The notes: generated by a model not told the origin, from the sequence alone. Counted from the first letter of the stretch, positions 441-49,488 are shown. The stretch: 58,194 bases of DNA from a virus (IMGVR_UViG_3300020034_000015:1-58194), one strand, 5' to 3'. Numbers and translations: made by a program.

Positions 441-1469
441 GTGGCGCAATCATCCTGGCCGTCCCCGGACACCTCCCGGGTCATCGACGACCTGGCCTAC
501 GAACGGCTCGTCGCAGCCCAGTACGTCGACGGCCTCGTCGGCAACATCACCGACACCCCGCTGGTCTACGCGGACGGCTCCGGGCGGCAGGTGTTCGTTC
601 GGGCGAGCCGCATCGCGCAGGTCCGCGGCCACGGGTGGTCGTCCGGCGGCAGCGTCCTGACGCTCTCCATCGGCGCCAACTCCTCGGGCAGCACCCGCGT
701 AGACCTCGTCGTGCTCGGGCTCAACCGCAGCACCTGGAACGTCACCGCCTACGTCAAGGCGGGCACCCCCGGGTCCGGGGCGCCCGCGTTGCAGGTCGAC
801 GCCGGCGACACTGGGATCTACGAGATCCCCCTGGCGGAAGTGACCGTGCCCAACGGCGCGACCCTCACCTCCGCAGGGCAGGTCCTGCCGCGCGCCTGGT
901 ACGCAACACCGTACGGGCCGGCCGCGCCCGGGTCGACGGTTGCGACCCGGCCGCCGGCGCCGGTTCCGGGCGTGATGATGTGGCAGAACGGCACCGGATA
1001 CGTGTGGAACGGGACGATCTGGGAGGCGATCTCCAACCCGCCTCTGCCGGTGACTTCGGACATGAGCACCACCCTGTTCGGCAACAGCATCAGGGACGAC
1101 AGCGCCTGGCACGATTTTCCGTCCGGGAACTGGGCTCCGCTGGCGTTCACCGTGCCGCCCTCCGGGCGCATCCACGTCAACATCAGCGGCTGGATCCAAA
1201 ATCTCCACGCCGCCGACAGCACGATCTGGATCAGCTGGCGGGCATCCGGCGGCGGACTGACCGTCGGCACGGACCTCGTCACCGTCCGGAACAGGGGGAT
1301 GAGCGTGCGCAGCAGCGGCATCGCCGCCACCAAACGCACGTACTTCAGCGGGCTCACCCCCGGCGCGTCCGTCACCCTCACACCCATCTACGCGAGCACG
1401 ACAACCACGAATGACGTGGACGTCAGCAGCTTGTCGTATGGGCGACTTGAAATGGAGCCGTCCGCATGA
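441..1469 (+). CDS. Minor tail / baseplate protein
   Basis: N-terminal ANSSGSTRVDLVVL...YEIPLAEVTV pattern of actinophage minor tail proteins; position directly after the Gp37-like gene. Confidence 0.75.
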   Translation: MAQSSWPSPDTSRVIDDLAYERLVAAQYVDGLVGNITDTPLVYADGSGRQVFVRASRIAQVRGHGWSSGGSVLTLSIGANSSGSTRVDLVVLGLNRSTWNVTAYVKAGTPGSGAPALQVDAGDTGIYEIPLAEVTVPNGATLTSAGQVLPRAWYATPYGPAAPGSTVATRPPAPVPGVMMWQNGTGYVWNGTIWEAISNPPLPVTSDMSTTLFGNSIRDDSAWHDFPSGNWAPLAFTVPPSGRIHVNISGWIQNLHAADSTIWISWRASGGGLTVGTDLVTVRNRGMSVRSSGIAATKRTYFSGLTPGASVTLTPIYASTTTTNDVDVSSLSYGRLEMEPSA

Positions 1470-3208
1470 GCCGCCACGTTTTCGGCCAGGGCCCCAGTGA
1501 CTGGACTTTCACTGTCGGAGCCGCCAACGCCGCCACGTTGGCCGGCGGCGTCGTCATCACCGTGTGGGACTCCGCCACCAGCGGCACGCAGCTCACCGAC
1601 CTCCTGGACGCGACCGGCTCGGCGATCAGCACGGTCACCAGCTCAACCGGCGCCTCCGGCCTGCCGGTCGGCACCATCCCCAGGTTCTCCGGCCCGGACG
1701 GCGTCACTCAGATGTGGGCCGACGCCGGCGGCGGCTACCGTTCCCTGATGGTCGCCCTCGACCTCGGCGCCGACGTCAAGACCCTCCAGACGTCAACGGC
1801 CGGGCACTACGCGGCATCGAATCCGCACAACACCACATACTTCGACCTGACGGGCGTCTACAACCCGACGGTCTCGAACCTGCTCGCGCAGCCCACGTTC
1901 ACCGCCGCCCACCGCGGCAGTGGCGGGGAGTTCCCCGAGCACACCCTGCGGTCCTACCGGTCCGCGCTCGCCGCAGGCGCTCCCGCCATCGAGGTTTCCG
2001 TCCAGCTCACCGCCGACGGCGTGCTCGTGTGCATGCATGACCTGACCCTGGACAGGACCACGGACCACACGGGGAACCTGAAGGACTGGACTCTCGCGGC
2101 GTTGAGGGAAAAGGTCCTCGTCACCCAGCAGTCGCTGCTCGGCGCGGGCTGGTCGTCCCAGCCGATCCCCACGCTGGAAGAGGTCCTGGACGCGCTGTAC
2201 GGCAAGTGCGTGATCTTCATCGAGGCCAAGAGCAACGACGCCATTGTCCCCTTGCAGAACTTGCTGCTGGCCCGGTATCCGGGGTGCCAGCGCTCGGTCC
2301 TTTGGAAGGGCTATTACCAATCGACCTCTTTTGCGTGGGCGAAAGCGAATGGTTTTTACGTGTGGGGGTACGTCGACGCCACCACGACCAACACGCAGAT
2401 GGACACCTACGACGCCAACATCGACTTCTGGGGTGTGCCGATCGCGTCGACGGACGCCCAGGTCTCTCTGGTCGTCGCCCGCGGCAAAAAAGTCATGGTC
2501 TGGGACGTCCACCGGCACATCGACGTCGAGCGCCTGACCGCCCTCGGCGTCGTCGGCTTCATGGAAGCCCAGTGGATCTACCTCAACAACTCCCCGGCGC
2601 TCACCCTGGACCGATTCGACGCGCAGATCAGCCAGCCAGGCACCCTCGGCATCGCCCGCTACGACCCCGTCTACGCGCTGAAATACGACGGCGCCTCGGG
2701 TGCCTACGTGCCGGTGGTGCCCAACGACGCGGTGGGGATGTTCGGTCACCGCCCGGCCGACGGCACCACCCACACCATCAACTTCCAGATGAAGTGGGAC
2801 ACCGCCCCCGCATCGGCGCTGCACGCCGACGTCGCCTTGTGCAGGTCGAAAGACGACCCCTGGCAGTTCGCCAACAACAACAACGCCTACGGGGCGCTGG
2901 CCTCCCCGGGCGGCTACCACTGCCTGATCCGCGGCAACGGCGACATCCAGATCTACTCGCACGTCGCTGGCAGTACGACCGGCACGCAGCTCGGGACGCT
3001 GGCCACTGTCGCGCCGGTCAACGGCACGTTCATGACTTTCCAGATCATCGTGTCGAGCACGCAGATCATCTTCAAGCGCACTGACGGTGCTGGCTGGACG
3101 CTCACCGTCACGAACAACCTCTATCGGGGCCGGTACTGGCACCTCGGCAACGGCAGCATCACCTCGCTGACCAACAAGCCCACGTGGAAGCTGCTGTCCG
3201 TCGCCTGA
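1466..3208 (+). CDS. Tail-associated glycerophosphodiester phosphodiesterase (GDPD) domain protein
   Basis: AHRGSGGEFPEHTL, IEVSVQLTADGVLVCMHDLTLDRTT, IPTLEEVL and IEAK are GDPD motifs. N-terminal virion-attachment-like segment and beta-rich C-terminus. ATGA overlap with the tail gene. Confidence 0.85.
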   Translation: MSRHVFGQGPSDWTFTVGAANAATLAGGVVITVWDSATSGTQLTDLLDATGSAISTVTSSTGASGLPVGTIPRFSGPDGVTQMWADAGGGYRSLMVALDLGADVKTLQTSTAGHYAASNPHNTTYFDLTGVYNPTVSNLLAQPTFTAAHRGSGGEFPEHTLRSYRSALAAGAPAIEVSVQLTADGVLVCMHDLTLDRTTDHTGNLKDWTLAALREKVLVTQQSLLGAGWSSQPIPTLEEVLDALYGKCVIFIEAKSNDAIVPLQNLLLARYPGCQRSVLWKGYYQSTSFAWAKANGFYVWGYVDATTTNTQMDTYDANIDFWGVPIASTDAQVSLVVARGKKVMVWDVHRHIDVERLTALGVVGFMEAQWIYLNNSPALTLDRFDAQISQPGTLGIARYDPVYALKYDGASGAYVPVVPNDAVGMFGHRPADGTTHTINFQMKWDTAPASALHADVALCRSKDDPWQFANNNNAYGALASPGGYHCLIRGNGDIQIYSHVAGSTTGTQLGTLATVAPVNGTFMTFQIIVSSTQIIFKRTDGAGWTLTVTNNLYRGRYWHLGNGSITSLTNKPTWKLLSVA

Positions 3209-3278: not shown

Positions 3279-4238
3279 ATGCCGACATCGCGCGGCCTCG
3301 ATGTGTCGTCCTATCAGGGCGTCCAGGACTGGAAAGCCCTGGCCCGCAGCGGGCTCACGTTCGCGTTCGCGAAAGCGTCCGAGGGCGAGCACACACACGA
3401 CGCCAAGTTCGGCACCCACATCACCGGCATCATCGGCGCCGGACTCGTGCCGGGCGCCTACCACTACGCCTGGCCGAACCAGGACCCGGCGGCCGAAGCG
3501 GCGAACTACGTCTCCGCGGTCCACACCCACCGCGTGGCCGGCTTCGTGCACGTCCTGGATCTGGAGCGCCGCACCGACGGCGCGAACTACAAGGGCCGCA
3601 CCGCGAAGCAGATCCAGGCGTACGCGCAGGCGTGGATCGATGACGTGCACGCCGCGTTCCCGCACGACCGCGTCGGCGTCTACACCTCCGCGTCGGACAT
3701 CGCGGCCGGCCATCTGCCGCCGAACGCCAGCTTCCTCTGGTACCCGGCGTATCCGTCGGGCGCCATGTCGTACGCGGACTCGGAGAAGCACACACCCCCG
3801 GCGCCGTCCGGGCGGCACCCGCTGTTCTGGCAGTTCACCAGCACCCCGCTGGACCGTTCCCTCGCCTATCTCTCCCCGGACGACCTGCGCACGTGGGCGG
3901 CCGGCGACGCACCCAAGCCCACGCAGCCTGACCCCGTGAAGGAGCCCACCTTGCCCGCACCGATTGATGTCTGGGGCTACAAGAACGCCAAGCAGGTCAA
4001 GGCGAACCCGAAGCTCCCCGACGCCTACGCCTACCTCCAGGGCGCGTACAACACGACGCGCACCCTCACGACTCAGGTCGCCGCCCTGAACGCCACCATC
4101 GGCGCACTCACCAAGGCAGTCGGCGACCTCCACTCGGGCATCGACACCGCGACCCTCGTGGCTGCCGTAGAGAAGGCCATCGCTGACGCCGTCGTGCACG
4201 TCCAGGTGGACGTCACCGGGGCGGCGGCCGAGGCGTGA
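3279..4238 (+). CDS. Endolysin, GH25 muramidase
   Basis: GLDVSSYQG, FAFAKASEG, GAYHY, LDLE and WQFTS motifs; GGAGG RBS upstream. Confidence 0.9.
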   Translation: MPTSRGLDVSSYQGVQDWKALARSGLTFAFAKASEGEHTHDAKFGTHITGIIGAGLVPGAYHYAWPNQDPAAEAANYVSAVHTHRVAGFVHVLDLERRTDGANYKGRTAKQIQAYAQAWIDDVHAAFPHDRVGVYTSASDIAAGHLPPNASFLWYPAYPSGAMSYADSEKHTPPAPSGRHPLFWQFTSTPLDRSLAYLSPDDLRTWAAGDAPKPTQPDPVKEPTLPAPIDVWGYKNAKQVKANPKLPDAYAYLQGAYNTTRTLTTQVAALNATIGALTKAVGDLHSGIDTATLVAAVEKAIADAVVHVQVDVTGAAAEA

Positions 4239-4576
4239 TCCTCAACCTGACGCCGCACCCGATCCGCCTCTACGCCGGAGAGCGCGAGGATGGCAGCGAC
4301 GATCTCGACCCCCACCTGCGCGAGACGATCCCACCCGAGCCGACCCCGGCCCGCCTCGCCACGATCGAACTCGGCGGCGGCATGTTCCCCGAGTTGGTCG
4401 AGTTCGGGCACGCCCAGAATCTCCCGCCGAAGCGGGACGGCGTGCAGTACATCGTCTCCCTGGTCGTCGCCCTGGCCCTCTGCGACCGGCGCTCCGACCT
4501 CCTCGTCCCGTACCGCGAGGTACGCAACTCGACCGGCACGGTCATCGGCTGCCGCAGTCTCGCGCAGCCCGTCTGA
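4235..4576 (+). CDS. Small NLTPH-motif protein (candidate Crn4-like ring nuclease; unverified)
   Basis: MILNLTPHPI...YIVSLVVA...RSDLLVP...VRNSTGTVIGCRSL; GTGA overlap with the endolysin stop. Confidence 0.7.
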   Translation: MILNLTPHPIRLYAGEREDGSDDLDPHLRETIPPEPTPARLATIELGGGMFPELVEFGHAQNLPPKRDGVQYIVSLVVALALCDRRSDLLVPYREVRNSTGTVIGCRSLAQPV

Positions 4577-4602
4577 ACCCCAACCAGTAGAAACGGATCA
4601 CC

Positions 4603-4989
4603 ATGAAGATCTTCGGCAGAGAACCCGTGTACTGGCTCACCACCATCGCCGTCATCCTCAAGCTCGCCGCGGCCTACGGCATCGACGTGTCCGACAACGA
4701 GCAGGGCGCGATCAACGCAGCCCTCGCCGCCGCCGTGGGCATCGCCACCGCCATCGTCCTCAAGAGCGGGGCGCTCGCCGCGAGCATCCTCAACTTCGGA
4801 CAGGGCGGCATCGCCTTGTTCATCGCGTTCGGGCTCCACATGTCCGCACACCAGCAGGGCCTGATCATGTCCGGCATCGCGACCGTACTAGCTCTGGTGC
4901 TGCACGAGCAGGTCACAGCCCCAGTGCCGTCCGTACCCCTGGAGGAGACCAGCCCGGTGAAGACCACCCAGCCCGTTCAGGCGGTGTGA
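4603..4989 (+). CDS. Holin
   Basis: MKIFGREP start, about 4 hydrophobic segments and a QVTAP tail typical of actinophage holins; in the lysis cassette. Confidence 0.8.
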   Translation: MKIFGREPVYWLTTIAVILKLAAAYGIDVSDNEQGAINAALAAAVGIATAIVLKSGALAASILNFGQGGIALFIAFGLHMSAHQQGLIMSGIATVLALVLHEQVTAPVPSVPLEETSPVKTTQPVQAV

Positions 4990-5783: not shown

Positions 5784-7700
5784 ATGGCGCTGCCCGTAGG
5801 CGTGCCGAAGGTGACCGTCACGACGGCGAAGCCCCTGATCACCCCGGGGGGTGCCCCGTACAAGGGGCGCCTCGTCTTCACCGGCCCCGACCTGGTGACC
5901 GTCGGTGGCCTGGACCTCGTCATCGGCGGACAGGCACCGGCGTACCTGACGGCCGGGCTGTTCTCCATCGACCTGGTGCCCTGCGACGTCGACACCATGA
6001 GCCCGAGCGGGTGGACGTACAAGGTCGACGGGGAATTCTCCAACGCCCCGGACTTCACCCGGTACGTCAGCGTCCTGTCCGGTGCCGGGCCATTGCAACT
6101 CGCGGACATCCTCGTGCCCGACCCGGTTGCCGGGGATTTCACGGTGTTGCTCGACCCGTCATCGTTGGGCGGGGCGGCGCTCCTCGACGTGGGGCAGACC
6201 GCGGCGACCGTCGCGGCCGGGGATGACGCGCGGTTCAGTACGGGTGGTCCTCCGTCTGGTGCGGCCGGCGGGGCGCTCACGGGCACCTACCCGAACCCCG
6301 CACTGAGCTCGGTCACCATCGCGGCGTTCGACCCGGCCGGGGCGGCGGCCGTCGCACAGTCGTCGGCCATCTCCGCAGCAGCCGCTGATGCCACCACGAA
6401 GGCGGGGACCGCGCAGTCCACGGCCATCTCGGTCGCGGCCTCGGACGCGACAACGAAAGCCAATGCGGCGCAGTCCGCGGCCACTTCGGCGGCTGCCACC
6501 GACGCGACGGGCAAGGTCACCGCTCACGCCGGTGCGACGGACCCCCATGCCGACCGGGCGTTCACAACCTCCGCAGTCTCCACGCACTCAGGAGCCACGG
6601 ACCCGCACGCAGACCGGGCATTCACCACGAGCTCGGTGTCTACGCACACGGGGGCAGCAGATCCCCACGGTGACCGTGCGGCGGCAGCTTCGGACGCGGC
6701 CTCGAAGGTCACCACGCACGCGGGCGCCACGGATCCGCACGCGGACCGCAGTTTCACGACCGGCGCCGTCTCAACTCATGCGGGGGCGGGCGACCCTCAC
6801 GGGGACAGGGCGGACGCCGCGGCGAAGTACGTGCCGCTCGGGGGCGGGACGATGGCTGGGGCGTTGAACCTGTCCAGCGGTGGTGTGGCCAGCAGGACCC
6901 CGGATGTCCAGGTGTTCACCGGCAGCGGGACGTGGACGAAGCCGACCGGCGCGGTGCTGGTGTCCGTGTACCTGTTGGCCGGTGGTGGCGGTGGCGGGTC
7001 GGGGCGGCGCGGTGCTGCGGGCACCATCCGCTGCGGTGGTGGCGGCGGGGCCGGCGGGTCGGTGTTCCAGGCGAACTTCCAGGCGTCGGCGCTCGGGGCG
7101 ACGGTCGCGGTGACCGTGGGCACGGGAGGCCCGGGTGGTGCGGCGAGGACGACGGACGACACCGATGGCGTGGCCGGGACCGCCGGGGGTGTGACCCTGT
7201 TCGGTCTGATCGGCCGTGTTGGAACCGGTGGTGCGGGCGGTGGTGGTACGGCGACGGCGGGCACTGGGGGCAGCACGGGCAGCGGCACTGTGACCGGGGG
7301 TGGTGGCGGTGCGGCGTCCGCAACCGGGGGCGCGGGCAACAGTGGCGGCGCGGGGGTGCTCGCGGGCCCGGGTGGGGGTTCTGGTGGTGGCATCACGGCG
7401 GCCAACGCGGCGGCCGCGGGTATCGGGGGCGGCGGCAACGGGGGCTCGGTGTCCGGCGCTGGCGGGTCCGTGGGTGGTGCTGCACCCACCCCGGCGGCGG
7501 ATTCCGCGGCGGGCTCTGGCCTGTCAGGTGGTGGCGGTGGCGGTGGTGCCGGGTCGATCACGGCGGCCGCGACCGCGGGCGCGGCCGGTGCCCTGTACGG
7601 GGCGGGTGGGGGTGGCGGTGGCGCCAGCCTGAACGGCAACAACTCGGGTGCGGGGGGCGCGGGCGGGAACGGCATCGCCATCGTGATCTCGTTCTTCTGA
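5784..7700 (+). CDS. Tail-fibre/appendage-like protein with His repeats and a Gly-rich C-terminus
   Basis: MALPVGVPKVTVT N-terminus, Ala-rich stalk, five HxGAxDPHxDR repeats, FTGSGTWTKP followed by a Gly-rich domain. Confidence 0.75.
   Translation: MALPVGVPKVTVTTAKPLITPGGAPYKGRLVFTGPDLVTVGGLDLVIGGQAPAYLTAGLFSIDLVPCDVDTMSPSGWTYKVDGEFSNAPDFTRYVSVLSGAGPLQLADILVPDPVAGDFTVLLDPSSLGGAALLDVGQTAATVAAGDDARFSTGGPPSGAAGGALTGTYPNPALSSVTIAAFDPAGAAAVAQSSAISAAAADATTKAGTAQSTAISVAASDATTKANAAQSAATSAAATDATGKVTAHAGATDPHADRAFTTSAVSTHSGATDPHADRAFTTSSVSTHTGAADPHGDRAAAASDAASKVTTHAGATDPHADRSFTTGAVSTHAGAGDPHGDRADAAAKYVPLGGGTMAGALNLSSGGVASRTPDVQVFTGSGTWTKPTGAVLVSVYLLAGGGGGGSGRRGAAGTIRCGGGGGAGGSVFQANFQASALGATVAVTVGTGGPGGAARTTDDTDGVAGTAGGVTLFGLIGRVGTGGAGGGGTATAGTGGSTGSGTVTGGGGGAASATGGAGNSGGAGVLAGPGGGSGGGITAANAAAAGIGGGGNGGSVSGAGGSVGGAAPTPAADSAAGSGLSGGGGGGGAGSITAAATAGAAGALYGAGGGGGGASLNGNNSGAGGAGGNGIAIVISFF
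6520..6820 (+). repeat. Five coding repeats (HxGAxDPHxDR), ~60-72 bp period
   Basis: Visible in the translation of 5784..7700. Confidence 0.85.
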
Positions 7701-7715
7701 ACCCGGGAACGGCAA

Positions 7716-7753
7716 CGCCCCTCACTGCCTTCGGGCGGTGAGGGGCGGCTTTC
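7716..7753. terminator. Terminator between convergent operons
   Basis: CGCCCCTCACTGCC-TTCG-GGCGGTGAGGGGCG 14-bp stem with cUUCGg loop, followed by GCTTTC. Confidence 0.85.
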
Positions 7754-7765
7754 GTACGTCCGGGA

Positions 7766-7975
7766 TCAGGAGCGGCGCCACCCCAGCGTGGTCAGCCAGC
7801 CGCCCACGCCTCCCGCGCACGCGAGCAGCACCACCACACCGACCGCCGCCGGGTGGCCGGTCGTCCACATCGTGACCGTACGGACGACGACCCACACCCC
7901 GGCAGCCACCACCGAGAGGCAGTATGCGAGCGTTCCGACACGTGCCAGGACGTCGGGCCACCAGGGCGCGGGCAC
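7766..7975 (-). CDS. Small 2-TM membrane protein
   Basis: GTG at 7975 just after the stop of the upstream ORF; two hydrophobic helices. Confidence 0.55.
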   Translation of the reverse strand: MPAPWWPDVLARVGTLAYCLSVVAAGVWVVVRTVTMWTTGHPAAVGVVVLLACAGGVGGWLTTLGWRRS

Positions 7976-7977
7976 GG

Positions 7978-8112
7978 CTACTTCTTCTCGGGCGCGGGCT
8001 GGGGCTCGACGGGCTTCGTCCACCCGCCCGCGGCCGGATCGTACTCGCGGGCATGCTCGTCGGTGTCGCCGGGGCGCTGATCCTGGCGTGTGGGCATCTT
8101 CGGCAGGGGCAT
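7978..8112 (-). CDS. Small hypothetical protein (44 aa)
   Basis: MPLPKMPTRQDQRPGDTDEHAREYDPAAGGWTKPVEPQPAPEKK, read manually; below the ORF-track cutoff. Confidence 0.45.
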   Translation of the reverse strand: MPLPKMPTRQDQRPGDTDEHAREYDPAAGGWTKPVEPQPAPEKK

Positions 8113-8191
8113 GATCGGGGTTACCTGTTCTCTCGCGGGATGGGTGGACCGGGGCGGGTGATGTCTTGGCGGATGGCACCCGCCCCGGGGT

Positions 8192-8419
8192 CTAGCGGTG
8201 GGTGATCAGGAGCAGCAAAAGCGCGGTGAGGACGATCACGGCCCAAGCGGCGGCGCGCGCGTCCACCGGGCGGCGCCGGGCGCGCTGCAAGTGCTCCCCG
8301 TCAGGGACGTGCCCGCCGTGACGACGGCGCCGGTGCGCGTCCCGCACATCGAGGACCTCGGCCCGTGTGCGCACGGGCAGGCTCGTCGTACGGCAGGAGT
8401 CACACCGGTACCGCCACAC
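8192..8419 (-). CDS. Small Zn-binding protein with a C-terminal TM anchor
   Basis: CxxC...HxxxxH followed by a hydrophobic tail; GGGGG RBS upstream. Confidence 0.65.
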   Translation of the reverse strand: MWRYRCDSCRTTSLPVRTRAEVLDVRDAHRRRRHGGHVPDGEHLQRARRRPVDARAAAWAVIVLTALLLLLITHR

Positions 8420-8422
8420 GGC

Positions 8423-9337
8423 CTACACGCCCCCCGAGATTGGCCCGAGAGCGGCCCGAGAGTGGTCCGAGGGCGGCTGAGATTCCTGCTGGTCAGAACC
8501 GCTCTCGGATGGTTGAGAGGGGGACGCCTGCCCCTTCCGGGGGAGGGCCAGGACAAGGGCCTCAACATCAGCCCGACGGACCCCCGAGCGGCCCTCAATA
8601 CCGTCCACGGACAGGGTGCGCTGGACGGGCACGGCGACGGCCTCAAGGAGGGCGCCCATATAGACCCGGGGAAGGCCCGCGAAGAGGGGGTGCGCGGCGA
8701 CCTTTCGGTGCAGCTCGCCGAGGTGCACACCGTTGCGGTGGCGGGTGACTTCCTCGAGGAGGACGAGGAGCGTGATCCGGTCCCGCTCGAGCAGGTCTTC
8801 CTCGGGCAGTCCCTTCGACTCCTCGAGCGGCTTCTGCTCGAGCACCTTCGGGGCCGGTCCGGGAGCAACCCACCAAGCGGCGATGAGCAGCCCGACCAGC
8901 CCCACCCCGGCGGCGGCCGGCAGGTACGGGGCGACCTTCGGGCCGGCGGTGACCAGCACGCCGACGGCCACGACCCCGGTGACGCCGAGGGCGAGGAGTC
9001 CGCCCGCGATGCGCTCCGCCATGTCGGCCATGGGTGTGGCCTTGGGCGGAGGCGCCTTCTTCGCCTTGCCTGGGGTGCTCTTGGCGTCGGTCGTGGCGGG
9101 CTTCCCGGTCTTGGCCGGGGGCTTGGCTGCCTGCTCGCCGAACGCGGCCTTGAGCGCTTTGCCGAGCAGTCGGAACAGGCCGCGGCCGAGGACCCCGAAC
9201 CCCGACGCGAGGGTCCGGGCGGTGGTCTTGCCGGGCAGATAGGGGCGCAGGCGCGGTCGGGCGAGGGCCCGCCGGGATGACGGCTCCCCCGCCTCCGCAT
9301 CCTCGATGATCTTGCCGAGGAGGGTTCGCGCACCCAT
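8423..9337 (-). CDS. Membrane-anchored protein with a putative C-terminal winged-helix DNA-binding domain
   Basis: ATG 9337 is TGATG-coupled. Two TM helices, then GVHLGELHRKV...LLEAVAVPVQRTLSVDG...GVRRADV. No Walker A motif. Confidence 0.7.
   Translation of the reverse strand: MGARTLLGKIIEDAEAGEPSSRRALARPRLRPYLPGKTTARTLASGFGVLGRGLFRLLGKALKAAFGEQAAKPPAKTGKPATTDAKSTPGKAKKAPPPKATPMADMAERIAGGLLALGVTGVVAVGVLVTAGPKVAPYLPAAAGVGLVGLLIAAWWVAPGPAPKVLEQKPLEESKGLPEEDLLERDRITLLVLLEEVTRHRNGVHLGELHRKVAAHPLFAGLPRVYMGALLEAVAVPVQRTLSVDGIEGRSGVRRADVEALVLALPRKGQASPSQPSESGSDQQESQPPSDHSRAALGPISGGV
8434..8519. repeat. Helically phased CCGAGAG-type direct repeats (clt-like array)
   Basis: Copies at 8434, 8445, 8456, 8467 and 8477 (11/11/11/10-bp spacing), an inverted copy at 8502, and CTGGTCAG at 8489. 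Confidence 0.7.
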
Positions 9338-9813
9338 CACGCACCGCCGGTGAAGTGCCCGACGACCATGCGGATGATGTTCACGAGGATCCCCCACACC
9401 CCGCCGGCCGTGCCGTACACCGCCGCCGCGGCGATCCCCAGCAGGCCGGGCCAGATGAGGCGTTTCCAGTGTGGGCCGAACGTCAGCAAGGTCAGGACCA
9501 GGGCGATGCCGCCCTGCCCGGGGTTCCCCAGACCGCTCCCCGGGCCGAGGACGGAGGTGGGCACCGACCCGATGTTGGCCGCGGTCGAGGCCCACGCCCC
9601 GCCTGCGGCGATCCACAGGGTGCCGGTGAGGATCCCGAACGCGCCGATGCCGTCGCGGTGGGCGACGACCTTGAACCGGTCGGCTTTGCGGACGCCGAGG
9701 ATCATCGCGACGGCGCAGGCCAGGGCGAGCCCGGACAGGGTCATCGTCCCGAGGAGCTGCCCGCCGTGGATGCCCTGCACGGTGGCGGGGGCGGCGGTAA
9801 GCATGCTGGTCAC
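9337..9813 (-). CDS. Gly-rich multi-pass membrane protein
   Basis: GTGA-coupled start with a GGAG RBS; about 4 hydrophobic helices. Confidence 0.75.
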   Translation of the reverse strand: MTSMLTAAPATVQGIHGGQLLGTMTLSGLALACAVAMILGVRKADRFKVVAHRDGIGAFGILTGTLWIAAGGAWASTAANIGSVPTSVLGPGSGLGNPGQGGIALVLTLLTFGPHWKRLIWPGLLGIAAAAVYGTAGGVWGILVNIIRMVVGHFTGGA

Positions 9814-10433
9814 TGGGGTACTCCGGGTGCGTAGAGGGCGATGGCCAGGACAGCGCTGGCGAGGGGGATGCGGCAGGCCCACGCGAGCGGCGGCCACCAC
9901 CCGCGGGTACGGCCATCGAGGAGCGCGGTGCCGAGGATGAGACCGCCGCCGAGGCACAGGGCCGCGGTGGTGCCGGACTGCCGGCCGCAGTCGGCGACCC
10001 AGCCGTGGAACAGGGGGGCGAGTCCGAGGTACCAGCCGGCCGTGGCGGCGGCGCCGTTGGTGAGGAGCCAGCGGGTGCGCCGGTCAACCTGGCCCCAGGT
10101 GGTGTGCAGTTCGCGAGCGGGGTTGCGGCGGTCGCGTCGTACGACGGCCGGGGTGGACTCGTCGACGGGCTCGGCGTCCTCCCACTCCGGGTCCGCCTCG
10201 GGCTGCTCCGTGGGCTCGGGCACCGCCTTGGGTGCGGCCGGACGGCGCAGCGGTGGGATACGGCGGCGCCGGGGCGTGGCCGCACCGTGGTGGTCGTCGG
10301 TGTCGTCGTACAGGCGGTCCCACCACTCGTCACCGGATGCGGGTGCAGCCGGGGGCTGCGGGGTGTATCCGAGACCGCGCTTGCGGAGTGCGTAGCGGAT
10401 GCGGCGCTCATCGGCACCGGGGGTGGTGGTCAC
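9810..10433 (-). CDS. Membrane protein (about 3 C-terminal TM)
   Basis: GTGA coupling at both ends; hydrophobic C-terminal half. Confidence 0.75.
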   Translation of the reverse strand: MTTTPGADERRIRYALRKRGLGYTPQPPAAPASGDEWWDRLYDDTDDHHGAATPRRRRIPPLRRPAAPKAVPEPTEQPEADPEWEDAEPVDESTPAVVRRDRRNPARELHTTWGQVDRRTRWLLTNGAAATAGWYLGLAPLFHGWVADCGRQSGTTAALCLGGGLILGTALLDGRTRGWWPPLAWACRIPLASAVLAIALYAPGVPQ

Positions 10434-10948
10434 GAGGCTTCCTTGTCGAGTGCGTCGCGGATGCGCATGGCCCGGGGCTGCCCGACTCCGTAGGTGCGCT
10501 GGATGCGCCGCAGGCTCATGGGGCCGTGTGCGGCGAGTGCACGGGCGTGCTCGATCAGCTCGGCGTCGGATGCGGCAGACGTCGGCACGGGGGGCTCAGT
10601 CCGGGCGGGGGGTGCGACTGGTGCATCCGGGTGCGCATCCGCCCTGACCGCTGTCGACACGGGCAGCATCGGTGCCAGGTGCAGTTCGAGTGCACCCGCC
10701 GGGTGCGGGGGCGGGGCGAGTGCGGTCGCCTCGGATGCAGCCCGGTCGAAGCCTGTATCCGGCTGCACCTCGGGGGCATCCTGAATACGCTCCAGCGCGT
10801 CGTGGACCTGCCGCATGAGTGCACCGAATGCGATGAGCGCAGCCGTCGGCGGCACTGCGGCGACGATGTAGTTGAGGGGAGATGCACCGGATCCGACACC
10901 GCTGATGTTCAGCGCAACCGATCCGACGGAGCCGAGTGCGGCGAGTGC
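10335..10948. repeat. Dense array of GRRTGC hexamers inside and just beyond the DUF2637 gene
   Basis: About 19 plus-strand copies (GGATGC, GGGTGC, GAGTGC, GAATGC) and about 4 inverted copies, counted by eye. Confidence 0.7.
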
Positions 10949-11188
10949 GATAGCCCAGGGGTCGACACGGCCCTTGAGGGAAGCCCGGAGGATCAGGCTC
11001 TCGCCGACGAGGATGAACCCGTCGATGGTGCCGGGCCAGGCCCAGGCTCCGTTGCCACTGAGTCCGTGGCCGCCTGCGATGTGGTGGAGGTGGTCGTAGG
11101 ACAGCCAGAATCCGGCGCCGGTGAGGACGACCGTGACGACGCCGGCGCTGATGGCGAGTGCGGTGGTGGCGCGGCGGTGGGGGTTCAC
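10430..11188 (-). CDS. DUF2637 / SpdB2-like membrane protein with a C-terminal FtsK-gamma-like HTH
   Basis: GFWLSYDHLHHIAGGHG...AWAWPGTIDGFI...SVALNI...VAAVPPTAALIAF 4-TM signature; tail SLRRIQRTYGVGQPRAMRIRD; GAGGAG RBS. Confidence 0.8.
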   Translation of the reverse strand: MNPHRRATTALAISAGVVTVVLTGAGFWLSYDHLHHIAGGHGLSGNGAWAWPGTIDGFILVGESLILRASLKGRVDPWAIALAALGSVGSVALNISGVGSGASPLNYIVAAVPPTAALIAFGALMRQVHDALERIQDAPEVQPDTGFDRAASEATALAPPPHPAGALELHLAPMLPVSTAVRADAHPDAPVAPPARTEPPVPTSAASDAELIEHARALAAHGPMSLRRIQRTYGVGQPRAMRIRDALDKEAS

Positions 11189-11265
11189 GACGCTCCTCGG
11201 CGTTGTGGGGGTGGGGACCGCGCCCGGCGGCCGGGAGGGGTGGCGCCGGGCGCGGCGGTCCGGGG

Positions 11266-11436
11266 TTAGCGGCGGTCGGGGATCGTGTCGTCGGTTTCGG
11301 TGACGGTGAGGTCCGGGATGTGATTCCGGATCCGGCCGATCCGTTCTTTGGCGAAGTCCGGGGCGTTGGTGCTGAACTCATCGAGGTGCTTGCCGTCTGG
11401 GCCGGTGACCTTGTACCGGGTGACCTTGAAGTCCAC
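11266..11436 (-). CDS. Small hypothetical protein (56 aa)
   Basis: AGGAG RBS plus GTG; MDFKVTRYKVTGPDGKHLDEFSTNAPDFAKERIGRIRNHIPDLTVTETDDTIPDRR; good codon usage. Confidence 0.65.
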   Translation of the reverse strand: MDFKVTRYKVTGPDGKHLDEFSTNAPDFAKERIGRIRNHIPDLTVTETDDTIPDRR

Positions 11437-11452
11437 GGTCGGCTCCTGGTGG

Positions 11453-11617
11453 TTACTCGTTCCAGCGGGGGCGGTTGGTCTGGTCGCGGCGCTGCCGTGC
11501 CTTGGAGTCGCGGGAGTTCCGGGCGACCCGGAGTTGGTGGTCGGCGGCGCGCTGCAGGGACTGGGCGTCGGTTTTGGGGGTGCTGCGTCCGCCGAGCCAG
11601 GAGAACCGGCCGGTCAC
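11453..11617 (-). CDS. Small basic hypothetical protein (54 aa)
   Basis: GTGA-coupled; MTGRFSWLGGRSTPKTDAQSLQRAADHQLRVARNSRDSKARQRRDQTNRPRWNE. Confidence 0.5.
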   Translation of the reverse strand: MTGRFSWLGGRSTPKTDAQSLQRAADHQLRVARNSRDSKARQRRDQTNRPRWNE

Positions 11618-11787
11618 CGGCGGTGCTGGGTGTGGGGGGTGGCGGTGAAGTGCCCGCCGGGGTTGGCGTCTTCGCGTTGCTGGTAGTCGCGGTTGCAGGC
11701 GTCGACGGTCGCCTCCTCGTAGGCGACGGTGTTGGGCTGGTGCGCGGGGGTGGGCTCGGGGTCGGGGTGATCGCTACGATTCGTCAC
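11614..11787 (-). CDS. Small hypothetical protein (57 aa), first gene of the leftward operon
   Basis: GAGG RBS plus GTG; MTNRSDHPDPEPTPAHQPNTVAYEEATVDACNRDYQQREDANPGGHF... Confidence 0.5.
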   Translation of the reverse strand: MTNRSDHPDPEPTPAHQPNTVAYEEATVDACNRDYQQREDANPGGHFTATPHTQHRR

Positions 11788-11896
11788 GGACTCGCCTCTT
11801 CGTCGTGGTTGTAGGTGGGTCTGGCCCCGGCCATGTGGAGCTGCGAACTCCGGCCGGGGCCGTTCTCGTTGAGCAGCGTGGGCTGCCTTCCATCAC

Positions 11897-11915
11897 TGTA
11901 GGGGGTTCCCCTACA
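11897..11915. promoter_or_regulatory. Palindromic operator overlapping divergent -10 elements
   Basis: TGTAGGGG-gtt-CCCCTACA; overlaps TACAAT (+, 11912) and TACAGT (-, 11900). Confidence 0.7.
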
Positions 11916-11952
11916 ATCTGGGAAGCGGCCCGCCCACAGAGAGGGGCCGGGC

Positions 11953-12264
11953 GTGAGCGAGGAGGCGCATCGGGTGTTCGATGCCATGGAGGCGCTGGGG
12001 CAGATTGCCGATCCGGTGGAGCGCGCCAGGGTCCTGACGGAGGTGCTGAAGGGACTGCCCGCTCACAACCGGCGGCTGAAGGAGGCGCGGCAGGCCACGT
12101 TCCAGGAGCTGCTGGCGCGCCCGGGCGCGACCCTGCGGAGCGTCGGGATCGAGTTGGGGATCAATCACGGGTCGGTGCAGGACATCGCGAAGGGCTACTC
12201 GGGGTCCGGCACGAAGCGGCCGAGGACGCCCCCGCCGTCACTCAGCGATGGGAGCAGTACATGA
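11953..12264 (+). CDS. HTH regulator divergent from the membrane operon (Kor-like)
   Basis: GATLRSVGIELGINHGSVQDIAKG HTH; GAGGGG RBS. Confidence 0.75.
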   Translation: MSEEAHRVFDAMEALGQIADPVERARVLTEVLKGLPAHNRRLKEARQATFQELLARPGATLRSVGIELGINHGSVQDIAKGYSGSGTKRPRTPPPSLSDGSST

Positions 12265-12491
12265 CCGCGTTCGACCCCCGCAGCCCGAGCATGCGGTTGT
12301 GGCACCGTCTTCTGGCAGGCGGCGCCACGGAGGACGAAGCCACCGCGCTGATGAATGGCTACGCCCACGAGTTGGCGGAGAGACTGATCTGTGACGAGAA
12401 GGCCGGGGTGGCCGTGTACAGGCCGGGCCTCATGTGGGCTGCCGAGGTGATCGACCCGCAGCCCGATGACGAGGAGAGCAGCAGCGCATGA
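12261..12491 (+). CDS. Hypothetical protein
   Basis: ATGA coupling and GGAG RBS. Confidence 0.6.
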   Translation: MTAFDPRSPSMRLWHRLLAGGATEDEATALMNGYAHELAERLICDEKAGVAVYRPGLMWAAEVIDPQPDDEESSSA

Positions 12492-16953: not shown

Positions 16954-17266
16954 GCGTTATCCTCGGAGCGCCCCGCCCATGGTTGGTATCCGAGCAGGCA
17001 GACGTTTCCGGTCGCAAGATGTGGCCCTCACCGTGATCCGGTGGGGGCCTCGTCGCGTCGGGCTACCCTGGCCGTGCGGCATCCGGGTGCGAGACCCGGC
17101 GCATGCGATCCGGACGCGCGAGAGGCTGCCCCGCCTGGCGGGACTACCCCTGTGCCGCACTCAACCCGACTTGAAAACCGGCCCGCCAAATTCAAGGTTC
17201 GGGTCACCACCGGCGCGTCGGGGCCTTGTGCTACTGGTCTGGGTCCAACTGGTAGATCACCGGGAC

Positions 17267-17443
17267 CTACGCCCGCGCGGTCTCCCGCTCCACCGCGACC
17301 CGCCACTCCGCACGCAACCTGCCCAGCTCGGCCAGCGCCTCCGGAGTCCACACCGTACGGCCCTCGCACAGCTGCCGTATCCGCTGGTTCAGCTCAGCCG
17401 CACCAGGGCACACCGGGGCCGGGGAACAGGACGGACAGGGCAT
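17267..17443 (-). CDS. Small helical protein divergent from the XRE regulator (58 aa), probably leaderless
   Basis: MPCPSCSPAPVCPGAAELNQRIRQLCEGRTVWTPEALAELGRLRAEWRVAVERETARA; TAGGCT -10 just upstream of the ATG. Confidence 0.55.
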   Translation of the reverse strand: MPCPSCSPAPVCPGAAELNQRIRQLCEGRTVWTPEALAELGRLRAEWRVAVERETARA

Positions 17444-17587
17444 GCCACCAGCCTACGGGCCGACGATGTACACCCGGTATACGCGCAGGCCGGACGGCAT
17501 ATACCAACCCCCACCAACAGGATCACCCCCACAAGCACCCCCGCCCGGCGTACCGTGAAAGGACAACTCTCTGGCGGGGGTACCCAC

Positions 17588-18811
17588 ATGGCACGCGAAA
17601 ACAGCCCCATCGGCGACCGCATCCGCGTCCTACGCGAATTCCGCGACGTCACCCAACAAGAACTCGCCGACCGCGCCGGCTGCTCCATCGACACCATCCG
17701 AAAACTCGAACAGGGCGTACGGCAGTCCGCTGCACTAGCCACCCTCCGCGCCCTCGCACGCGCCCTGGACGTCGAACTCGAACGCCTCCTAGGACAGCCC
17801 ACCGTGACCAGCTCCGCGCCGGACGACGGCGGCCTCCTCGCACTCCGCGACGCGATCCAGGACGTCGGCGCGATCCCCGGCGTCCTCACCGCCGACCTCG
17901 CCGACGACCCGCCCGACACGGGAGCGTGGCTGGCGTCCGTTGCGCACGCCACGAACCTCTACTGGCAGGGCGGCTATTCCGAGCTGTCCGGTGTGCTACC
18001 GCTGCTGCTCCGCGACGGGCGCGCGGTCGCCCGCGACACCGCGGGCCACGACGCCGAACGCGTCTGGGGGCAACTGGCATTGTCGTATCAGCTCGCCGCG
18101 TCCCTGGCCACACAGTCCGGGCACACCGACTGGGCATACCAGGCCGTCGAGAAGCAGCTCCAGGCCGCGGAGCGCGCGAGCGACCCGCTGATGTCCGGCA
18201 TGGGCGTGTCCACGCTGAGCTGGGTGCTGCTCCGCCAGGGCCGGTGGGAGCAGGCCCAGCAGGTCGCGGAGACGAAGGCGGACTCCCTGGAGCCGTCGAT
18301 CCGCCGGGCGACCGCATCTCAGTACGCCGTGTACGGGAACCTGCTGATCGCCGCGGCGACGCCGGCCGCACGCCGGGACCAGCATGATGAGGCGTCGGAG
18401 CTGATCAACCTCGCCGAGGCCGCCGCCACCCGCAGCGGGCCCACCCGGGCGTACGGCAGCGCGTTCAGCGTGGTGGACGTGCAGACGCAGGCTGTGAACG
18501 TCGCCTTGGCCGGCCGCCGGTCCCGCCCGGAGGTCGCCTTGCGCCTCGCTGCCCGCGTCGACTTGACGGCTATCAGCCGCCCGGTGCACGCCGCGTCGCA
18601 CCGGGTGGACGTGGCGCACGCGCAGTACGCCACTGGGGACTCCGACGGGGCGTTGGGGACGCTGCTTGAGGTAGAGGCGGTGCAGCCGGAGTGGATCCGT
18701 TACCAGACCCTCGCGGCGGCGACGGTGCGGGAGATGTTGGAGGCGGAGCGGCGGAAGAACACCCCACTGAGGGGGCTGGCCGCCCGGCTCGGTGTCGAGC
18801 CCGCATTGTGA
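17588..18811 (+). CDS. XRE-family HTH regulator with a large helical (TPR-like) C-terminal domain
   Basis: IGDRIRVLREFRDVTQQELADRAGCSIDTIRKLEQG HTH followed by Ala/Leu-rich helical repeats. Confidence 0.85.
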   Translation: MARENSPIGDRIRVLREFRDVTQQELADRAGCSIDTIRKLEQGVRQSAALATLRALARALDVELERLLGQPTVTSSAPDDGGLLALRDAIQDVGAIPGVLTADLADDPPDTGAWLASVAHATNLYWQGGYSELSGVLPLLLRDGRAVARDTAGHDAERVWGQLALSYQLAASLATQSGHTDWAYQAVEKQLQAAERASDPLMSGMGVSTLSWVLLRQGRWEQAQQVAETKADSLEPSIRRATASQYAVYGNLLIAAATPAARRDQHDEASELINLAEAAATRSGPTRAYGSAFSVVDVQTQAVNVALAGRRSRPEVALRLAARVDLTAISRPVHAASHRVDVAHAQYATGDSDGALGTLLEVEAVQPEWIRYQTLAAATVREMLEAERRKNTPLRGLAARLGVEPAL

Positions 18812-20407: not shown

Positions 20408-21313
20408 ATGGACAGCGAAGAGCTCAACTCGATGCTCGACTCCTGGCTCCTCCATCTGCGGGCCGAACGGAAAAGCGCACAGACCATCAAGACCTACGGC
20501 GACGGCGTACGGCGCTTCATGGCGTGGGCCGAAGCAGCAGAGGTCGAACCCACCCTCACCAGACCAACCGTCAACGCGTTCATCGCAGGGATCCTCGACG
20601 ACGGCAACGGGGTCCAGGCATCAACGGCACGATCCCGGCAGCTCGCCCTGCGACGCATGTCGGCGTGGCTCAAGGACGAGGGAGAGATCGAAACCGACGA
20701 GCTGGCGGGCCTGAAGCCGCCCAAGCTAGATAGCAAAATTGTTCCTGAGCTGACAGATGACCAGCTCCGCGGCCTCATCACGGCCTGCAAGGGCGCCGAC
20801 TTCCGAGAGCGGCGCGATGAGGCGATCGTACGCCTCATGACCGAGACTGCGGCCCGGGCCGGCGAAGTCGTCGCGATGACCCTTCCGGATGTCGACCTGA
20901 AGGAGGGGCTGGTCGCGGTCCGCCGCGGCAAGGGCGGAAAGGGCCGCATGATTCCGGTCGGTCCGCAGACGGTCCGCGCGATCGACCGCTACCTGCGCCT
21001 GCGACGGTCCCACCGCCTCGCACAGGCCGGGTCATCGCTGCTCTGGCTCGGAGACCGGGGGAAGGGCTTCACGTACTACGGGCTGTACAGCGCCCTCTTG
21101 TACCGGGCCGAACTGGCGGGTGTCGAGGACTTCCACCCTCATGTGCTGCGGCACACGGCGGCCGGCCGGTGGCTGGCCAGAGGGGGGTCGGAGGGCGGGC
21201 TGATGGCCATCGCGGGGTGGACGCGGCGGGAGATGGTCGACCGGTACACCCGGGCTACGTCGGAGCGGCGGGCTGCGGATGAGGCCAGGTCCCTGGGTCT
21301 GGGGGACCTGTAG
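20408..21313 (+). CDS. int: Tyrosine integrase
   Basis: RDEAIVRLMTETAARAGE (R), RGKGGK (K), HVLRHT (HxxR), AGW...MVDRY (W, Y). Confidence 0.92.
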   Translation: MDSEELNSMLDSWLLHLRAERKSAQTIKTYGDGVRRFMAWAEAAEVEPTLTRPTVNAFIAGILDDGNGVQASTARSRQLALRRMSAWLKDEGEIETDELAGLKPPKLDSKIVPELTDDQLRGLITACKGADFRERRDEAIVRLMTETAARAGEVVAMTLPDVDLKEGLVAVRRGKGGKGRMIPVGPQTVRAIDRYLRLRRSHRLAQAGSSLLWLGDRGKGFTYYGLYSALLYRAELAGVEDFHPHVLRHTAAGRWLARGGSEGGLMAIAGWTRREMVDRYTRATSERRAADEARSLGLGDL

Positions 21314-39473: not shown

Positions 39474-40052
39474 GTGTACGAGGATATCTGTGCCCAACTC
39501 GGGAAGTGCCTCAATCCCCTCCACGATCATGGAGAGCGGATTGGAGCCCCCGGACTGTCCAGCCTGGTGGACACCACTGACCCCGCCTTCGAGGCCATCG
39601 CCCGCGTGCTGGCCGATATGAACGCAGCAGGGGTGAAACTCACCCTGGCCAGCGTTGACGTCGCGATCAGGTTGGGCAGGCTCTACCAGTCCAAGCGAGA
39701 GCAGCCCGCAGTGCCCCAGCAGACCGCGTACGGACTCCGCCATGAGGTCGTGTACTACATGCGGTTCGGCCACCTCATCAAGATCGGCACCACGGGGCTG
39801 CTCGGGAATCGGGCGCGCGAACTGAAGCCTGACGAGGTGCTCGCCGCCGAGCCGGGCAGCTACGACCTAGAGAGCGAGCGGCATCGGCAGTTCGGCCGAT
39901 TCCTGGCCGAAGGCGAGTACTTCTTCCCCGCTCCGGCGCTCATGGCTCACATCCGTAAGGTGCGAGTCCGCTATCGGCGGACGCTTCTCGAACCCGTGGT
40001 AACCCAGCGTTACGACGATCATGCTTGCGATCCGATTCCATCCCTGTTCTAA
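39474..40052 (+). CDS. GIY-YIG-like (T5orf172-type) protein
   Basis: VVYYMRFGHLIKIGTT...R...E..RHRQF...GEYF; AAGGAG RBS. Confidence 0.7.
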   Translation: MYEDICAQLGKCLNPLHDHGERIGAPGLSSLVDTTDPAFEAIARVLADMNAAGVKLTLASVDVAIRLGRLYQSKREQPAVPQQTAYGLRHEVVYYMRFGHLIKIGTTGLLGNRARELKPDEVLAAEPGSYDLESERHRQFGRFLAEGEYFFPAPALMAHIRKVRVRYRRTLLEPVVTQRYDDHACDPIPSLF

Positions 40053-40110
40053 TCGGGGCAAGCGCATGGTGCCCGGACATAAATGATCTAGGCGCACGCT
40101 GAGTAACTTC

Positions 40111-40148
40111 CGAAGGCCCCGCAGCCCACGACGCTGACGGGGCCTTCG
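40111..40148. terminator. Hairpin at the early/late boundary
   Basis: CGAAGGCCCCG...CGGGGCCTTCG stem. Confidence 0.5.
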
Positions 40149-40175
40149 CCATTCCCCCAACCGCCAGGAGCAGCG

Positions 40176-40442: not shown

Positions 40443-40449
40443 CCCCCTC

Positions 40450-40704: not shown

Positions 40705-40713
40705 CCCAAGGGG

Positions 40714-45542: not shown

Positions 45543-45553
45543 TCGGAGACCTC

Positions 45554-45712: not shown

Positions 45713-45723
45713 CCCCACAGCTT

Positions 45724-45860: not shown

Positions 45861-45862
45861 CC

Positions 45863-46669: not shown

Positions 46670-46685
46670 GACATAGGAGGGCACC

Positions 46686-48708: not shown

Positions 48709-48722
48709 TCGGGGTCTGACAC

Positions 48723-49058: not shown

Positions 49059-49086
49059 CCTCCGGGTCGGGAAGGAGGCGCACCCG

Positions 49087-49485: not shown

Positions 49486-49488
49486 CCG

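Follow-up and report, generated by a model that had tools for sequence, protein, structure and literature searches.

The window analyzed here is the whole IMG/VR virus record IMGVR_UViG_3300020034_000015, a stretch of 58,194 bp with a G+C content of ∼70% that is rated 100% complete. Our subject is a cassette at 7766-12264 in which ten minus-strand genes, g1 to g10 (7766-11787), lie opposite a rightward gene for a small helix-turn-helix (HTH) protein, with a palindrome between them. An initial annotation of this region had proposed a phage-borne relative of the spread (spd) operons of Streptomyces plasmids that lacks the translocase TraB. The carrier is indeed a phage: since PHROG scans found terminase, portal, head, tape-measure, fiber, endolysin, and tyrosine integrase genes, the window is a temperate siphovirus-like actinophage, and its gene order is permuted.

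ORF listing, a plot of G+C by codon phase, and inspection of starts and ribosome-binding sites (RBS) delineated the ten open reading frames (ORFs), all of which are intact and have a third-position G+C (GC3) of 0.80 to 0.96. Overlaps of 1 to 4 nt join g1/g2, g4/g5, g5/g6, and g6/g7, intergenic gaps of 2 to 3 nt separate g7 from g8 and g9 from g10, and real gaps are found only between g3 and g4 (77 nt) and between g8 and g9 (79 nt). Given the four overlaps and the two short gaps, the earlier description of a leftward, largely coupled operon of ten ORFs is correct. A plus-strand frame at 8198-9280 has its G+C peak at codon position 1 and was dismissed as the shadow of g7 and g8.

The best characterized product of the operon is g4 (252 aa, 11188-10430, minus strand as for all genes of the operon), which matches Pfam DUF2637 (PF10935) over residues 17-137 with a score of 62.6 bits, the cut-off being 22.8 (E 5.3e-17). 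Hydropathy revealed four hydrophobic segments and the structural model four long helices within residues 3-137, so that g4 is laid out as a four-helix membrane domain (residues 1-137), a Pro/Ala linker that is disordered, and at the C terminus a predicted HTH of three helices (residues 208-251; predicted local distance difference test score (pLDDT) ∼91). Foldseek returned only generic helical bundles for this model (E at least 0.66), and a PDB sequence search with alignments A1 and A2 gave nothing significant, the best match being TonB at E 0.087 via the Pro-rich linker. A word-indexed protein search yielded 162 homologs of g4 at E ≤ 1e-5, many of them full-length and some in Streptomyces genomes; some relatives carry HTH_17, and one bears the source name "SpdA protein." g4 also matches phrog_733 (E 6e-24, residues 12-222), which is labeled "excisionase." Taking an excisionase to be a small soluble DNA-binding protein of the MerR/HTH_17 type that works with an integrase, we rejected this identity for g4, as the match spans the membrane domain, the protein has four transmembrane (TM) helices and no HTH_17, and the integrase gene lies 9 kb off. 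An alignment of 26 g4 homologs served as the query of a locus search, from which we took 80 of 494 genome stretches, 4 further genome loci found by single protein, and 80 of 104 viral-collection stretches; individual loci are given below by L numbers.

The next genes encode membrane proteins as well. g5 (207 aa, 10433-9810) combines a charged, Pro-rich, soluble N-terminal half with at least two C-terminal TM segments; its homologs directly follow DUF2637 in L004, L008, L010, L024, L042, and L110/L111, and a comparison to the ESM Atlas returned unnamed actinobacterial clusters only. g6 (158 aa, 9813-9337, or 155 aa if it starts at the ATG at 9804) is polytopic with 4 TM segments and has syntenic homologs in L004, L010, L024, and L042. 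g8 (75 aa, 8419-8192), a match to phrog_32136 (E 1.7e-10), has a zinc-finger-like N terminus of the form CxxC...Hx4H, in which C6, C9, H29, and H34 are invariant in 7/7 aligned homologs, and a C-terminal TM anchor (segment 56-72 by hydropathy) that is present in all seven.

Between g6 and g8 lies g7 (304 aa, 9337-8423), which consists of an N-terminal amphipathic and basic region, 2 TM segments (residues 113-157), and a C-terminal domain (residues 179-263) with the predicted topology H-beta-H-H-beta-beta at a pLDDT of 81 to 91. The structural neighbors of this domain are all winged helices, including MarR, ArsR, PadR, forkhead, and ORC, at weak scores (Foldseek E ≥ 0.23, VIA Z ≤ 6.7), and we assign its predicted structure to the winged-helix fold class and to nothing narrower. 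Hence the membrane proteins named in the initial annotation, namely a DUF2637 protein with four TM segments and an HTH, further membrane proteins, a protein with two TM segments and a winged-helix-like domain, and a TM-anchored zinc protein, were all recovered by Pfam, hydropathy, models, and alignment. A near-length search with g7 found 13 homologs, all metagenomic, and relatives are encoded on seven viral contigs; tblastn against phages gave no match, and the single sequence found no relative among genome contigs. When we searched with A5, a profile of the g7 C-terminal domain built from 17 window and locus sequences, we obtained 373 cluster representatives with E ≤ 0.001, of which 115 have E ≤ 1e-10. 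With few exceptions, the best 150 are 86 to 420 aa long and carry the domain at the C-terminal end. From these 150, ten long or multidomain matches were scanned with Pfam: members of ordinary length had no Pfam family, three long ones are arrays of generic winged helices, and FtsK_SpoIIIE was found in none of the ten. The g7-type proteins form an unnamed family of predicted membrane-anchored winged-helix proteins, most of which are 180 to 330 aa long.

The remaining genes are small. Past the leader hairpin described below, the first is g1 (57 aa, acidic, 11787-11614), whose N-terminal ..TDQP.P.PSP.. and C..DY motifs recur at other loci, followed by g2 (54 aa, basic, 11617-11453), which resembles small proteins in the same position elsewhere (MG.F...AGRESA.DRAAR); both resemblances were judged by eye and unscored. 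Next is g3 (56 aa, soluble, 11436-11266), which has a GC3 of 0.89 and an RBS-like AGGAG and for which no relatives were found. The number of small ORFs past the hairpin ranges from 2 to 5 across loci. At the far end, g9 (44 aa, soluble and charged, 8112-7978, GC3 0.91) has a relative at 56% identity in L060/L149 by tblastn, and g10 (69 aa, 7975-7766), recognized by GC3 phase and hydropathy, has two TM segments and starts 2 nt past the g9 stop. NCBIfam returned no match for nine operon proteins and the HTH protein. Beyond g10 we located a GC-rich hairpin (7713..7750, core 7716-7747, either strand) that by folding is a probable bidirectional terminator; its core reaches -45.5 kcal/mol (z -6.3), and 0/200 shuffles were as stable. 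It has no T-run and was not called by a consensus terminator scanner. Since this hairpin sits between the convergent ends of a tail-fiber gene (7700) and g10 (7766), the terminator that the initial annotation gave to the operon does exist as a strong hairpin but would be shared, not the operon's own.

Facing the operon, the HTH gene (103 aa, 11953-12264, plus strand) is the first of a rightward operon. Its product matches HTH_23 only, at E 9.6e-4 and below the Pfam cut-off, with no NCBIfam or PHROG match. A profile search found members of this HTH family in 28 loci. In 25/28, the HTH gene lies on the opposite strand 115 to 2,889 bp upstream of DUF2637, and 24 of these 25 loci are TraB-less, the exception being L144; in two other loci the match overlaps DUF2637, and L009 has no DUF2637 call. 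Between the HTH gene and g1 is a 39-bp palindrome (11887-11925, arms 11887-11904 and 11908-11925) with the core TGTAGGGG-gtt-CCCCTACA, which is unique in the genome; a 22-mer was matched in 0/100 shuffles. Inside it lie the -10 boxes of both directions, TACAAT on the plus strand (11912-11917) for the HTH gene and TACAGT on the minus strand (11900-11895) for the operon, just as had been proposed. From this arrangement, the palindrome is probably an operator, here putative, common to two divergent overlapping promoters, and the HTH protein is probably the autoregulated repressor of the leftward operon.

The same intergenic plan was found in all 12 comparison loci that we inspected. Starting from the HTH gene, a -35-like TTGC/TTCC is followed by a palindrome with the -10, a spacer of ∼25 nt, and a two-tier hairpin rich in G+C, after which come an RBS and the first of the small ORFs. 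In 9/12 of these loci, there is a palindrome that has perfect arms and contributes a TAC..T -10 box from its outer half, and L042, L076, and L119 have imperfect or repeated half-sites in its place. The palindromes vary by locus: the window and L029 have TGTAGGGG-N3-CCCCTACA, L112 has TGTACGGGGCCCCGTACA, and L028 has two tandem TAGACCCTAGGGTCTA sites in the operator position. By inspection, this is the pattern expected of repressor-operator pairs that diverge together. The leader hairpin (11823-11861, minus strand) has perfect arms of 10 nt and is kept in 13 sequences, those of the window and the 12 loci. Upon alignment of the 13, its 12 pairs include 3 with compensatory changes, pairing holds in 92.3% of cells, and 13 cells carry a change in both partners, values that were each reached by 0/500 shuffles; as a control, slid partners pair in 32 to 69% of cells. 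The hairpin has no T-run, and no credible Rfam match was found over 7600-12400. It may be an attenuator, a stabilizer, or a protein site.

We found no FtsK_SpoIIIE domain in the window, and a hidden Markov model (HMM) of the TraB motor had no match there at E ≤ 10, in agreement with the earlier statement that this genome encodes no FtsK/TraB ATPase. This motor profile was built from ATPases beside DUF2637 genes in related loci and applied to flanks of ±10 kb; of ten such ATPases sampled, six matched Pfam FtsK_SpoIIIE at E < 0.001, and the others matched generic AAA or nothing. With it, a TraB-like ATPase was found near DUF2637 in 32/84 genome loci and 26/80 viral-collection loci; in 54 cases its gene was seen downstream of DUF2637, against 6 cases upstream. 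These counts are not independent because the same element sits in both collections (for instance, L097 = L166 and L033 = L128). The family is also carried by three Streptomyces plasmids of 7 to 8 kb. In two of the three, the order is an FtsK/SpoIIIE gene, a small ORF, and DUF2637, which is the tra-spdA-spdB arrangement of pIJ101, so that the Spd slot beside TraB on small plasmids is held by DUF2637 relatives of g4. The C-terminal domains of g4 and g7 may bear a faint likeness to the winged-helix DNA-recognition domains of FtsK gamma and TraB, and g7 could be a motor-less TraB derivative. By hhalign, the g7 winged helix aligns with TraB-like proteins at their C-terminal end (P 3.8e-4, probability 36%); BLASTP matches were nonsignificant, and the five best of the ten listed fall at TraB-like C-terminal ends. 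FtsK gamma gave weak matches to the C terminus of g4, at E 0.019 for the window and E 0.0012 for L024, both below family cut-offs. In contrast to FtsK and TraB, which carry such C-terminal domains together with an ATPase, g4 and g7 have no ATPase domain.

These data bear on the possibility that g4 and g7 are membrane-tethered transcription factors that regulate phage or host promoters upon an envelope signal. Each carries a DNA-binding domain on a linker after its TM segments, and the excisionase label of phrog_733 and the HTH_17 of some g4 relatives point the same way. However, neither has a sensor domain and their extracytoplasmic loops are very short, the recurrent partner of the family is a DNA translocase and not regulons, and a palindrome that occurs once in the genome leaves no regulon of sites visible. 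We therefore regard such regulators as quite improbable.

Several elements of the survey carry more than DUF2637. L088, L097/L166, L154/L156, and L165 combine, inside 10 kb, DUF2637 with a TraB-like ATPase and with a gene for a terminase or portal protein, and by their gene content are candidate phage-like elements or plasmid-phages that carry a translocase; they recall the Streptomyces plasmid-phages mentioned in PMC4170104. An apparent DUF2637-TraB fusion in L097 was rejected, as the long open frame is a read-through of noncoding sequence. Large ORFs lie beside the DUF2637 and TraB-like genes of L040, L050, L051, L056, and L082. Those of L040, L051, and L056 are 31 to 44% identical to the tape-measure proteins of the window phage (53696-56455 and 52370-53638), and in L050 and L082 the likeness was seen by profile search only. 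Such loci could be elements resembling the integrative and conjugative elements of actinomycetes (AICEs) with tape-measure-like, perhaps cell-wall-active, proteins, or else phage-derived elements.

If a phage had captured the transfer region of a plasmid or AICE and traB had then been lost, such a decayed remnant would account for a missing motor, and two observations suit it: DUF2637 relatives often adjoin TraB, and a few elements pair a TraB-like gene with one for a terminase or portal. The initial annotation had named homologous operons that nearly always carry traB as the sign of such decay, and this is not what we found. Among the 20 loci that bear at least one g5-g8 homolog, TraB is present in 0/8 genome loci, 0/5 viral loci (A2), and 0/7 viral loci (A1). 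FtsK_SpoIIIE was likewise found in none of 10 related phage records, which include the viral contigs with g7 relatives, and the large Walker A ORFs of syntenic loci are terminases or unrelated to FtsK. In 5/7 of those viral contigs, DUF2637 lies upstream of the g7 relative on the same strand, three times above the Pfam cut-off and twice as a weak match. For instance, L004 and L010 have g5-g6-g7-g8 in order; L042, a contig of a metagenome-assembled genome (MAG), has the cassette order HTH <- -> g4-g5-g6-g7-g8 and adjoins tail genes; and L024, a phage-like locus of Actinacidiphila polyblastidii V4-01, presents early-left homologs, the divergent HTH gene, small ORFs, and g4-g8, followed by convergent tail-fiber and lysis genes. 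In the prophages L026, L027, L044, and L047, a g4-like gene closes the early region and immediately precedes the terminase genes, and TraB is again missing. We observed the TraB-less layout again in diverged loci at 30 to 63% protein identity. A FastTree phylogeny of the DUF2637 domain (172 rows and 139 columns, with many forks unresolved) groups the window with L024 and L025 at an SH-like support of 99 and places it within a set of 25 TraB-less rows at a support of 89, whereas TraB-linked rows occupy several other clusters. Since the loci with g5-g8 are all TraB-less within the ±10 kb covered, the cassette is a stable, conserved phage form and not a decayed remnant. The ten intact ORFs with their high GC3 and the conservation of switch and leader hairpin, the latter with compensatory changes, also speak against decay, which we consider exceedingly improbable.

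Two relatives illustrate how far the cassette varies. L024 shares with the window the gene order, the position, and the leader hairpin, and its g4 is 64% identical; it differs in its palindrome (GTATGGCTGCCATAC), in its small ORFs, and in a g7 homolog that is only 30% identical, and no g9 or g10 homolog was detected. In the cultured phage OnionKnight (OQ938575), genes 56-60 bear no annotation beyond "DNA binding protein" and "membrane protein." They comprise a small divergent gene of the window's HTH family, a gene for a DUF2637 protein 53 to 60% identical to the N-terminal domain of g4, and then genes for three small membrane proteins. As in the window, no FtsK/SpoIIIE was found in this temperate phage. 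Unlike in the window, its cassette lies at the right genome end and not after the tail fiber, its downstream membrane proteins have no detectable homology to g5-g8, and no small ORFs intervene between operator and DUF2637, the gap being ∼150 bp. DUF2637 genes are present in three cultured temperate phages, namely OnionKnight, Dubu, and phiSASD1. No cultured phage showed nucleotide similarity to the operon region or to 40000-58194 of the window.

Functional background comes from the plasmid pSVH1, where intramycelial spread and the formation of pocks require spdB3, spd79, and spdB2 (Thoma et al. 2015, PMC4447253). SpdB2 is an oligomeric protein with four TM segments that binds dsDNA and peptidoglycan, forms pores, interacts with TraB, and promotes spheroplasting by T7 lysozyme (PMC4447253). 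Comparison of the Spd operons found on conjugative Streptomyces plasmids and AICEs (for instance, spdB3-spd79-spdB2 of pSVH1 and spdA-spdB-kilB of pIJ101) to the cassette reveals a common architecture: a coupled operon of small, mostly hydrophobic proteins, a central four-TM protein with a capacity for DNA binding in SpdB2 and a predicted HTH in g4, and a divergent repressor gene with an operator, which the cassette has by arrangement. The cassette differs in lacking a TraB/FtsK-like motor and in being carried by a tailed temperate phage. The repressors differ as well, the 103-aa HTH protein standing against GntR-type Kor/TraR (KorA of pIJ101 is annotated GntR). Consequently, of the Kor-like repression anticipated in the initial annotation, the divergent HTH and operator arrangement is conserved elsewhere and holds, and a GntR-type Kor protein does not. 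The proposed spd kinship fared similarly: DUF2637 does occupy the spd slot beside TraB on Streptomyces plasmids, and neither SpdB of pIJ101 nor phiC31 shows DUF2637. The link of g4 to spread genes is thus partly supported, by its TraB-adjacent relatives, by architecture, and by the one source name "SpdA protein," and we take the cassette to be derived from, or related to, the spread modules of actinomycetes, in a form that a phage carries without TraB.

The pore-forming and spheroplasting activities of SpdB2 raise another possibility, that the proteins permeabilize or arrest the host for lysis timing or growth arrest after induction and for that reason need a tight local repressor. The regulation is kil/kor-like, and in the window and L024 the cassette abuts lysis and tail genes. 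On the other hand, the operon runs opposite to the endolysin gene, the small ORFs beside that gene (4235-4989) are by position better-placed holin candidates, and in OnionKnight the cassette is far from the endolysin and holins (genes 22-24). As a pure pore would also leave the DNA-binding domains unaccounted for, we give this explanation little credence.

Our preferred reading, which we hold tentatively and at somewhat below even probability, is that the cassette is an accessory unit of temperate phages of the Streptomyces group that encodes a Spd-like, motor-less DNA-handling complex. We infer repressor-operator binding, complex formation, DNA binding, and a role in tethering or spread, which might be connected as follows. 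A dimer of the HTH protein would bind the palindrome and repress both promoters in a kil/kor-like manner; because both -10 boxes lie inside one palindrome, a bound dimer would shut off both. The leader hairpin would add a second layer of operon control. Upon derepression, g4, g5, g6, g7, g8, and g10 would be inserted in the membrane, with the HTH of g4 and the winged helix of g7 held in the cytoplasm on flexible linkers. The resulting complex would hold dsDNA to the membrane or to a cross-wall of the hypha, the role proposed for plasmid Spd proteins, and would either tether phage DNA or deliver it to a translocase encoded outside the phage. A prediction of the complex of g4 and g7 scored 0.00 and decides neither way. 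As a bolder extension, g4 and the TraB-like winged helix of g7 might capture the excised or replicating phage genome at cross-walls and borrow a motor, either of the FtsK/SffA type from the host or TraB from an AICE or plasmid, allowing virion-free spread between compartments. We think this improbable. Clusters of clt-like 8-mers were not found near the operon, and the motif GACCCGGA is present 11 times, scattered.

Several results weigh against a Spd-like DNA-handling role. Plasmid spread requires the TraB motor, which is absent here. Unlike the genes of a Spd operon, g5-g8 have no plasmid relatives that we could find, and tblastn with g7 gave no match in 72,556 plasmid records. SpdB of pIJ101 has no DUF2637 match and compares to g4 at a BLASTP E of 0.25, and phiC31 has no DUF2637 match although it is cited in print as carrying a SpdB2 homolog. 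Within ±10 kb, 47/84 genome loci and 33/80 viral loci have neither TraB nor phage markers, the markers being derived from the window phage's own proteins. The sequencing runs that contain the window sequence are soil-metagenome DNA only, with no RNA run listed. Finally, all four carriers checked for an integrase (the window, OnionKnight, Dubu, and phiSASD1) are temperate, and therefore exclusion expressed by the lysogen fits equally well.

Such exclusion or competition is the main rival. Here, membrane proteins of the lysogen would block the DNA of a superinfecting phage, or would poison the TraB-Spd apparatus of an incoming plasmid or AICE as decoy subunits, for which the kinship with Spd-slot proteins supplies a plausible target. 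Besides the temperate carriers, it draws on the accessory positions of the cassette, which either follows the tail and lysis genes or ends the early region just ahead of the terminase genes, and on a membrane-protein content that varies by locus, as for exclusion genes. Nevertheless, an operator dedicated to self-repression would hold the operon silent at steady state, an odd arrangement for exclusion that is constitutive. The PADLOC-DB 2.0 models, a library of described systems only, returned nothing at E ≤ 0.01, nine of the ten operon proteins being matchless and g1 matching JAB at E 0.047. To our knowledge, two cytoplasmic DNA-binding domains are atypical of injection blockers. On balance, we judge exclusion to be rather unlikely, with about one chance in a few.

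Elsewhere in the window, the PHROG scans placed the large terminase at 41234-42505, the major head protein at 46686-47750, the tape measure at 53696-56455, tail-fiber proteins at 1466-3208 and 5784-7700, the endolysin at 3279-4238, and the tyrosine integrase at 20408-21313, along with genes for the portal and a head-morphogenesis protein and for recombination and replication. The tail-fiber protein that converges on the operon (5784-7700) has tandem repeats with a motif like GATDPHADRAFTTS.VSTH and then a long Gly/Ala-rich C-terminal half, and its first 97 residues match the PHROG of the other fiber gene (1466-3208). A regulator of 596 aa (17021-18811), with an XRE-type HTH at residues 190-260 (phrog_5823, E 4e-110), may be the main immunity repressor. 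Relatives of this protein at 24 to 31% identity lie a few kb from DUF2637 in L052, L058, L061, L068, L086, and L089, all of them loci without TraB and without phage markers. The 8-mer ACGTTTCC/GGAAACGT occurs in seven copies within ∼120 bp at 33378-33500, against a genome-wide expectation of 0.5, near the 3' end of a DnaB-like helicase/primase gene (31919-33700), and an eighth copy is found at 17002. This array looks like replication-origin iterons or the site array of a regulator.

Taken together, these results alter what can be said about spread genes on phages. The cassette cannot be called an undescribed system, as the initial annotation had it: one sentence in Thoma et al. already suggests, without test, that SpdB2 homologs on actinophages play a role in the spread of phage DNA (PMC4447253), and cultured phages carry DUF2637 genes. 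Among works on intramycelial spread and phage, we found no paper titled on phage spd genes, and papers on DUF2637 are unrelated by title; to the extent covered by our searches, neither the architecture of the switch nor the partner families had been described before. What was a single gene resemblance is now a defined recurrent cassette of repressor, operator, leader hairpin, DUF2637-HTH protein, membrane winged-helix protein, and tail-anchored zinc protein, and OnionKnight on S. lividans offers a cultured, genetically tractable carrier for a suggestion that has stood since 2015. The behavior of phage and prophage DNA inside a compartmented mycelium is essentially unstudied. If exclusion were the true function, the cassette would represent a new class of genes for competition between phages and plasmids. 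If instead it tethers or spreads DNA, viruses of bacteria would have a mode of propagation that is new, and spread by a borrowed translocase, if true, would give a bacterial virus a cell-to-cell route under the control of a repressor, an operator, and a leader hairpin of its own.

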